From assembly GCF_003334765.1 (NCBI RefSeq), contig NZ_QOWT01000001.1: DNA of 64,000 bases; one strand, given 5' to 3'. This DNA comes from Escherichia coli (GTDB taxonomy: Bacteria; Pseudomonadota; Gammaproteobacteria; Enterobacterales; Enterobacteriaceae). The position numbers were made by a program, and so were the translations under genes. This document shows, piece after piece, positions 4,867-4,896 of the stretch. The notes beneath the pieces were generated by a model. It did no database searches. It was given only the letters and a program-made list of their open reading frames with translations, and was not told the DNA's origin. The first letter of the stretch is position 1. The number at the start of each line of letters is the position of its first letter.

Positions 4867-4896
4867 TTCCCCCAATGCTGGGGGAATGTTTTTGTT
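4867..4896 (+). terminator. Terminator-like hairpin oriented for plus strand (no plus-strand gene upstream)
   Basis: ttccccca-atgc-tgggggaa perfect 8-bp stem followed by tgtttttgtt on plus strand. Confidence 0.45.

Follow-up and report, generated by a model that had tools for sequence, protein, structure and literature searches.

The hairpin located directly downstream of the pfkB gene marks, in vivo, the 3' end of the Escherichia coli pfkB mRNA, 3–4 nt beyond the stem, and most likely represents a protective 3'-terminal structure of the class described by Dar and Sorek, which lacks a U-tract (Dar and Sorek, 2018; PMC6061677). This element is an ordinary mRNA 3'-end stem-loop that is already present in published 3'-end maps; its importance goes little beyond correct annotation, as an example of the common stem-loops without a U-tract that mark and stabilise E. 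coli mRNA ends. A preliminary description of this DNA had offered two readings of the hairpin, namely an orphan plus-strand intrinsic terminator antisense to ydiZ and, as a fallback, a 3' stabiliser for pfkB mRNA. The latter is favoured by the mapped pfkB-sense end, the absence of a U-tract and the conserved position, and from these we infer the stabilising effect itself, whereas the former finds no support in the 3'-end maps, in the variability of the T-run or in the search for a promoter.

The window, that is, the whole stretch of 64,000 nucleotides that was analysed, matches the pfkB–ydiZ–yniA region of E. coli K-12 MG1655 in reverse-complement orientation, with 3 mismatches in 6.5 kb. Window positions (w) and MG1655 coordinates (m) are related by m = 1812194 − w, and the plus strand of the window corresponds to the minus strand of MG1655. 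The genes pfkB and ydiZ, both of which had been called correctly at the outset, point in the same direction and are not convergent, and the gap between them provides just 100 nt of untranslated RNA ahead of ydiZ (Table 1).

Table 1. Genes and RNA features in the vicinity of the pfkB hairpin (window coordinates)
Feature	Position	Strand	Remarks
hxpB	2146–2814	−	
yniB	2961–3497	+	
yniA	3538–4398	−	kinase gene
Rho termination region antisense to yniA	3936	+	MG1655 1808258(−); Adams 2021, supplementary file 2
ydiZ coding sequence	4504–4794	−	putative endoribonuclease, GhoS-like
Conserved ydiZ promoter-like block	4826–4852	−	TCGGCA (4852–4847), 15-nt spacer, C-TATGCT (4832, 4831–4826)
Steady-state pfkB mRNA 3' terminus	4858–4867	−	MG1655 plus-strand peak 1807327–1807336 in published 3'-end maps
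pfkB mRNA 3'-end stem-loop, AUUCCCCCA-GCAU-UGGGGGAAU	4866–4887	−	folding, mapped terminus, conservation
GTTTTTGTT run	4888–4896	+	terminator-like look; reads as the A-run CAAAAAC on the minus strand; overlaps the pfkB stop codon
pfkB coding sequence	4895–5824	−	6-phosphofructokinase 2; stop codon 4895–4897
ydiY	6111–6869	+	

Structure of the hairpin and mapped RNA 3' ends

The stem is a perfect 8-bp helix, in which ttccccca (w4867–4874) pairs with tgggggaa (w4879–4886) around the loop atgc (w4875–4878), and a possible ninth A-T pair (4866/4887) extends the stem-loop to its full length. On the plus strand, the flank 3' of the stem is tgtttttgtt (4887–4896). In the sense of pfkB, the stem begins 7 nt past the stop codon, with CAAAAAC preceding the hairpin and AAUCAUCACC following it, so that the minus-strand 3' flank is not U-rich. 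The stem, the loop, the T-rich tail on the plus strand and the lack of a U-rich flank on the minus strand had all been noted before and are confirmed here. The minus-strand hairpin folds with −14.7 kcal/mol (z −4.05; 0 of 200 shuffles as good); folding of the plus strand yields −17.5 kcal/mol (z −2.6), with about −14 kcal/mol for the hairpin itself. Perfect hairpins with stems of 8 bp or more and 5 or more GC pairs number 14 in the window, compared to 2.0 ± 1.5 in dinucleotide shuffles, and the hairpin exceeds the chance expectation. An Rfam scan of w3300–6300 at E ≤ 10 detected nothing relevant, that is, no known sRNA or cis-element family. A repeated extragenic palindrome (REP), which would recur many times in a genome, is ruled out: in E. 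coli genomes the region is single-copy (median of 1 place each).

The 3' end of the pfkB mRNA is reported in the Supplementary Data 2–4 of the TRS study (Bar et al., 2023; PMC10687069), where the dominant pfkB-sense terminus is 1807331/2 on the plus strand of MG1655, which corresponds to w4862–4863. This terminus is found in three datasets, namely the 'E. coli - Barsheshet' RNAtag-seq, the 'E. coli - Dar and Sorek' Term-seq and the LB RNAtag-seq, with replicate p values of 1.9e-61, 0 and 2.6e-68 in the Dar and Sorek sheet (PMC10687069). It is classified as "Primary, pfkB", with a signal of 0.966–0.987 and a maximum U-tract of 1, and the fold listed for it is exactly this hairpin, with the same energy of −14.7 kcal/mol as obtained here (PMC10687069). 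A signal of 0.97–0.99 means that there are few read starts downstream of the terminus.

On the opposite strand, the position-sorted TRS tables, including the Dar and Sorek Term-seq data, contain no MG1655 minus-strand terminus near 1807298; the neighbouring minus-strand ends are those of ydiY (1805285) and yniB (1808665), with none in between (PMC10687069). Adams 2021 curated Term-seq 3' ends for growth in LB at OD 0.4, in LB at OD 2.0 and in M63 glucose, and their list includes no 1807xxx entry on either strand, the pfkB terminus being missing as well (PMC7815308). The absence of a plus-strand end near w4896, which the preliminary description had itself named as the outcome that would count against an orphan plus-strand terminator, is thus what both the Adams and the TRS tables present, with the reservation that these are published peak lists from which very rare RNAs could escape. 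The supplements of TERMITe, SMRT-Cappable-seq and Cappable-seq, in files that are possibly incomplete, hold no entry for the region, and a literature search for a described pfkB terminator returned nothing specific.

Conservation of the stem and variability of the T-run on the opposite strand

The hairpin was compared across 80 Enterobacteriaceae loci with pfkB, most of which keep the gene order pfkB–ydiZ–yniA. A C-rich/G-rich hairpin directly follows the pfkB stop codon in 58 of the 80, with stem sequences that vary among loci (ATTCCCCCA, TCCCCCTC, GCCCTCG, CTCCCGC and others); it is missing from a few loci whose spacers are 44–64 nt long. Both strands of each sequence were folded with symmetric hairpin selection, a sense-only selection having been dropped as biased. 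With the best hairpin chosen independently per strand, the pfkB-sense strand is the more stable one in 34 loci and the antisense strand in 18, with 6 ties, and G·U pairs number 35 in the pfkB sense against 18 in antisense (Wilcoxon p = 0.026, with the loci treated without phylogenetic correction). Because a G·U pair in one strand corresponds to a C·A mismatch in its complement, this asymmetry points to a pfkB-sense RNA. In most species, neither flank is T-rich and the sense tail scores are mostly around 2; two Citrobacter loci (L007 and L009) carry a partial T-run, GGGGGAATTTTACG, after the stem, with a sense tail score of 3.1. Alignment and consensus folding of 49 hairpin regions with MAFFT/RNAalifold produced a consensus of 5 pairs only, from a poor alignment.

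Across Escherichia, the eight core stem pairs are unchanged. The run GTTTTTGTT is present in 4641 of the 5426 complete E. coli genomes, and an interrupted form, GTTTCAGTT, with a tail score of 2.85, in 751 (14%). The T-run is absent from E. albertii, E. whittamii and the cryptic clades; in its place, Escherichia other than E. coli carry GTTTCTG, ATCTCTA, GTCTCGA, GTCTCAA or GTCTCTA next to the invariant stem. Hairpin and U-tract are accordingly not conserved together: the stem is kept and the T-run is not. The T-run is a lineage-specific by-product of the A-rich stretch that follows the TAA stop codon, and no conserved terminator module. The case is a cautionary one in that a wrong-strand T-run at a gene-end hairpin can stem from A-rich sequence after the stop codon, and strand-specific 3'-end data combined with conservation tell the two readings apart. 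Polymorphism within the species (4875–4892, plus strand) includes the loop-closing pair, where GCT or GCA results in a loop of 4 or 6 nt, and the T-run variants TTTTT and TTTCA.

The alternative that the hairpin together with GUUUUUGUU is an intrinsic terminator that stops plus-strand transcripts in K-12-like strains and guards pfkB from antisense transcription draws on the appearance of the plus strand. In the terminator scan, the motif passes simple criteria on this strand only, with 9 pairs, 5 of them GC, a loop of 4 and the tail GTTTTTGTTA. Directly 3' of the stem, GUUUUUGUU supplies the U-rich tract of about 7–9 nt that is expected of an intrinsic terminator, with 7 U among 9 nt, and the T-tail score is 3.63 (up to 4.16) versus 1.8–2.5 on the minus strand. 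No other hairpin at a gene end in the window has a T-tract facing the wrong way. However, a score of 3.63 is equalled or beaten by chance at 2.8% of all window positions, so that the T-tail alone is moderately unusual, and the three base pairs adjoining the T-run are A-U, an arrangement that is unfavourable for intrinsic terminators when it lies beside the U-tract. The plus strand shares with canonical intrinsic terminators the 9-bp stem, the 4-nt loop and the U-tract, and differs from them in the A-U-rich stem base, in the lack of conservation of the U-tract, which is broken in the 751 genomes mentioned above and absent from all other Escherichia and most other genera, and in the absence of a co-oriented gene or promoter and of a mapped plus-strand end (none at about w4890–4897 in the three conditions of Adams or in the TRS tables); the pfkB sense is entirely without a U-tract.

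A terminator of this kind would also need transcripts that reach it. As stated in the preliminary description, there is no plus-strand gene within 1.4 kb upstream: the nearest one, yniB, ends 1369 nt before the hairpin, and yniB transcripts end mainly at another hairpin, at w3504–3520. Between positions 3000 and 4866, the plus strand contains no promoter-like site reaching 9/12, and neither a co-oriented gene nor a promoter that would deliver a transcript to the hairpin is found. A weak plus-strand promoter-like site scoring 8/12, TTGTTA (4806–4811) and CATAGT (4828–4833) separated by 16 nt, can be read from the sequence and overlaps the ydiZ −10 region. Experimental data on this strand come from the Rho termination region antisense to yniA, which has a Rho score of 5.24 with a significance of 1.1e-7, and in which the reads fall from 90 to 14 in untreated cells versus 81 to 66 with bicyclomycin (PMC7815308). 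This read drop and the effect of bicyclomycin indicate that low-level plus-strand transcription exists, reads further when Rho is inhibited and is mostly stopped by Rho some 930 nt before the hairpin; the fraction of antisense reads halted there is about 85%. At this region, yniB read-through or antisense transcription is held back by Rho.

The candidate inputs for a plus-strand terminator are Rho-escaped yniB read-through and divergent transcription from the ydiZ promoter region. If transcribed in this direction, the motif would probably show some termination. Nevertheless, when the plus-strand tail, its unique orientation, the antisense transcription and the weak promoter-like site are weighed against the missing 3' ends, the missing stronger promoter, the early action of Rho and the variability of the T-run, a plus-strand intrinsic terminator appears quite unlikely. 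A slightly more doubtful form of the same idea is that, in the approximately 86% of E. coli with an unbroken T-run, the pfkB hairpin has been co-opted as a back-up terminator for the opposite strand, which insulates pfkB from antisense transcription and receives either divergent transcripts of about 55 nt from the symmetric ydiZ −10 region (candidate promoter at w4806–4833) or yniB read-through that has escaped Rho. If true, the hairpin would be a recent, strain-variable insulator and a minor case of terminator directionality evolving at the level of strains.

A bidirectional terminator that serves both strands seems very improbable. The hairpin is nearly symmetric and readable from both strands in principle, the A-run on one side makes up half of the usual A-tract/U-tract arrangement, and a true two-strand case exists nearby, between the convergent genes yniB and yniA (w3504–3520). 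Unlike that pair, however, pfkB and ydiZ are co-directional, the T-run is present on one side only, and 3' ends have been mapped on one strand only.

The pfkB–ydiZ gap and probable protection of the pfkB mRNA

Downstream of the stem, at a distance of about 14 nt in the pfkB sense, begins a strongly conserved block that consists of TCGNCA, 15–16 nt, CTATGCT and A-rich sequence, with the ydiZ Shine–Dalgarno sequence about 30 nt later. Of 63 Enterobacteriaceae loci, 61 have the motif CTA[TA]GCT 30–36 nt ahead of the start codon of ydiZ, and in 34 of those it is accompanied by TCGNCNA at a spacing of 15–16 nt. Judging by these motifs, the block is a putative ydiZ promoter, with a −10 element that resembles the sigma-S type. 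The reading as a sigma-S-like promoter agrees with the induction of ydiZ on entry into stationary phase alongside typical stationary-phase genes (PMC2241611), and with the results of rifampicin RNA-seq, where ydiZ is raised and listed beside msyB and yiaG, although RT-qPCR in that study detected no significant change of ydiZ (PMC13256715). Given that the putative promoter lies downstream of the hairpin, the latter occupies a classic gene-end position, outside the ydiZ mRNA; a role of the hairpin as part of the ydiZ mRNA leader is ruled out by the same arrangement. In most E. coli genomes, ydiZ is annotated by RefSeq/PGAP as 'type V toxin-antitoxin system endoribonuclease antitoxin GhoS'; the adjacent genes are pfkB and yniA, and the annotation shows no ghoT-like toxin gene beside it.

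The class of termini described by Dar and Sorek in 2018 comprises precise steady-state 3' ends just past stable stem-loops without U-rich tails, with a mild bias of C over G downstream; termination in this class is diffuse and takes place further on, after which the stem-loop shields the RNA against PNPase and RNase II (PMC6061677). The pfkB terminus shares with this class the GC-rich stem-loop, the precise end immediately past it, as seen in all three datasets, the absence of U-rich sequence after the stem (maximum U-tract 1, tail score 1.8–2.5), the excess of C over G (C/G = 2.1 over the 40 nt downstream of the stem, pfkB sense), the weak expression of the gene and a hairpin energy similar to that of intrinsic terminators. 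Under this scheme, RNA polymerase would transcribe through the hairpin, where efficient intrinsic termination is unlikely given that there is no U-tract in the pfkB sense. Termination would most likely occur slightly further on; Rho, acting on untranslated RNA just downstream that is rich in C and poor in G, could bring it about, as could a weak release assisted by the hairpin. The 3'-to-5' exonucleases PNPase and RNase II would then shorten the tail until the stem base blocks their progress, and in this way the message would be stabilised. For pfkB, we infer the Rho dependence, the exonucleolytic trimming and the stabilising effect from the likeness to the class.

Several features set pfkB apart from this class. 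Rho-dependent termini do not typically carry an A-run ahead of the stem (Dar and Sorek, PMC6061677), and the one present in K-12 counts against a Rho-dependent class; moreover, the next promoter-like block follows at a distance of only about 14 nt. The gene is absent from the Rho termination regions of Adams 2021, where its weak expression (~0.04 read starts per nt) limits such calls, and the 100 nt of untranslated RNA before ydiZ is short for Rho loading. The main alternatives to a simple Rho model are non-canonical intrinsic termination and read-through into ydiZ followed by processing, a fate that some pfkB transcripts may share.

Non-canonical intrinsic termination, in which the hairpin itself would release RNA polymerase although the U-tract (AAUCAUCACC) is poor, with neither Rho nor trimming involved, we regard as unlikely. 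The sharpness of the 3' end, with its signal of 0.97–0.99, and the position typical of a terminator, ahead of an independent (putative) promoter, would fit such a mechanism. However, the end lies just 3–4 nt past the stem, whereas intrinsic release usually occurs 7–9 nt past it, the maximum U-tract is 1, and most species have no T-run after the stem, even though some relatives, such as the two Citrobacter loci with GGGGGAATTTTACG, possess a partial one. Hybrids of weak intrinsic and Rho-dependent termination may exist (Dar and Sorek, PMC6061677), which is likewise in favour of this mechanism. The protective stem-loop without a U-tract is the preferred reading of the pfkB 3' end.

Other hairpins and RNA ends in the vicinity

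For the hairpin that separates yniB from yniA, two convergent genes (w3504–3520), termini have been mapped on both strands, at 1808665-7 on the MG1655 minus strand for yniB and at 1808695 on the plus strand for yniA. The T-run is on the yniA side only, and therefore the yniB end is another terminus without a U-tract. In addition, Adams 2021 list an abundant 3' end at about w2965 on the plus strand (MG1655 1809229, minus), 4 nt into the yniB coding sequence, which implies that a short RNA ends at the yniB start codon.

Finally, GGGACCGCGATGGTCTC, with T7 behind it, forms a strong terminator-like hairpin at w6067–6090 on the plus strand, 24 nt ahead of the start codon of ydiY. A Term-seq 3' end has been mapped to it in Adams 2021 (MG1655 1806107, minus, which is w6087; classed as 'orphan', 24 nt before the ORF), and a promoter-like site, TTGCTA-17-TATAAT, is located upstream of the hairpin at 5990–6018 on the same strand. 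The combination of the hairpin, the mapped end and the promoter-like site suggests a leader RNA, about 60–70 nt long, or else an attenuator within the 5' UTR of ydiY.
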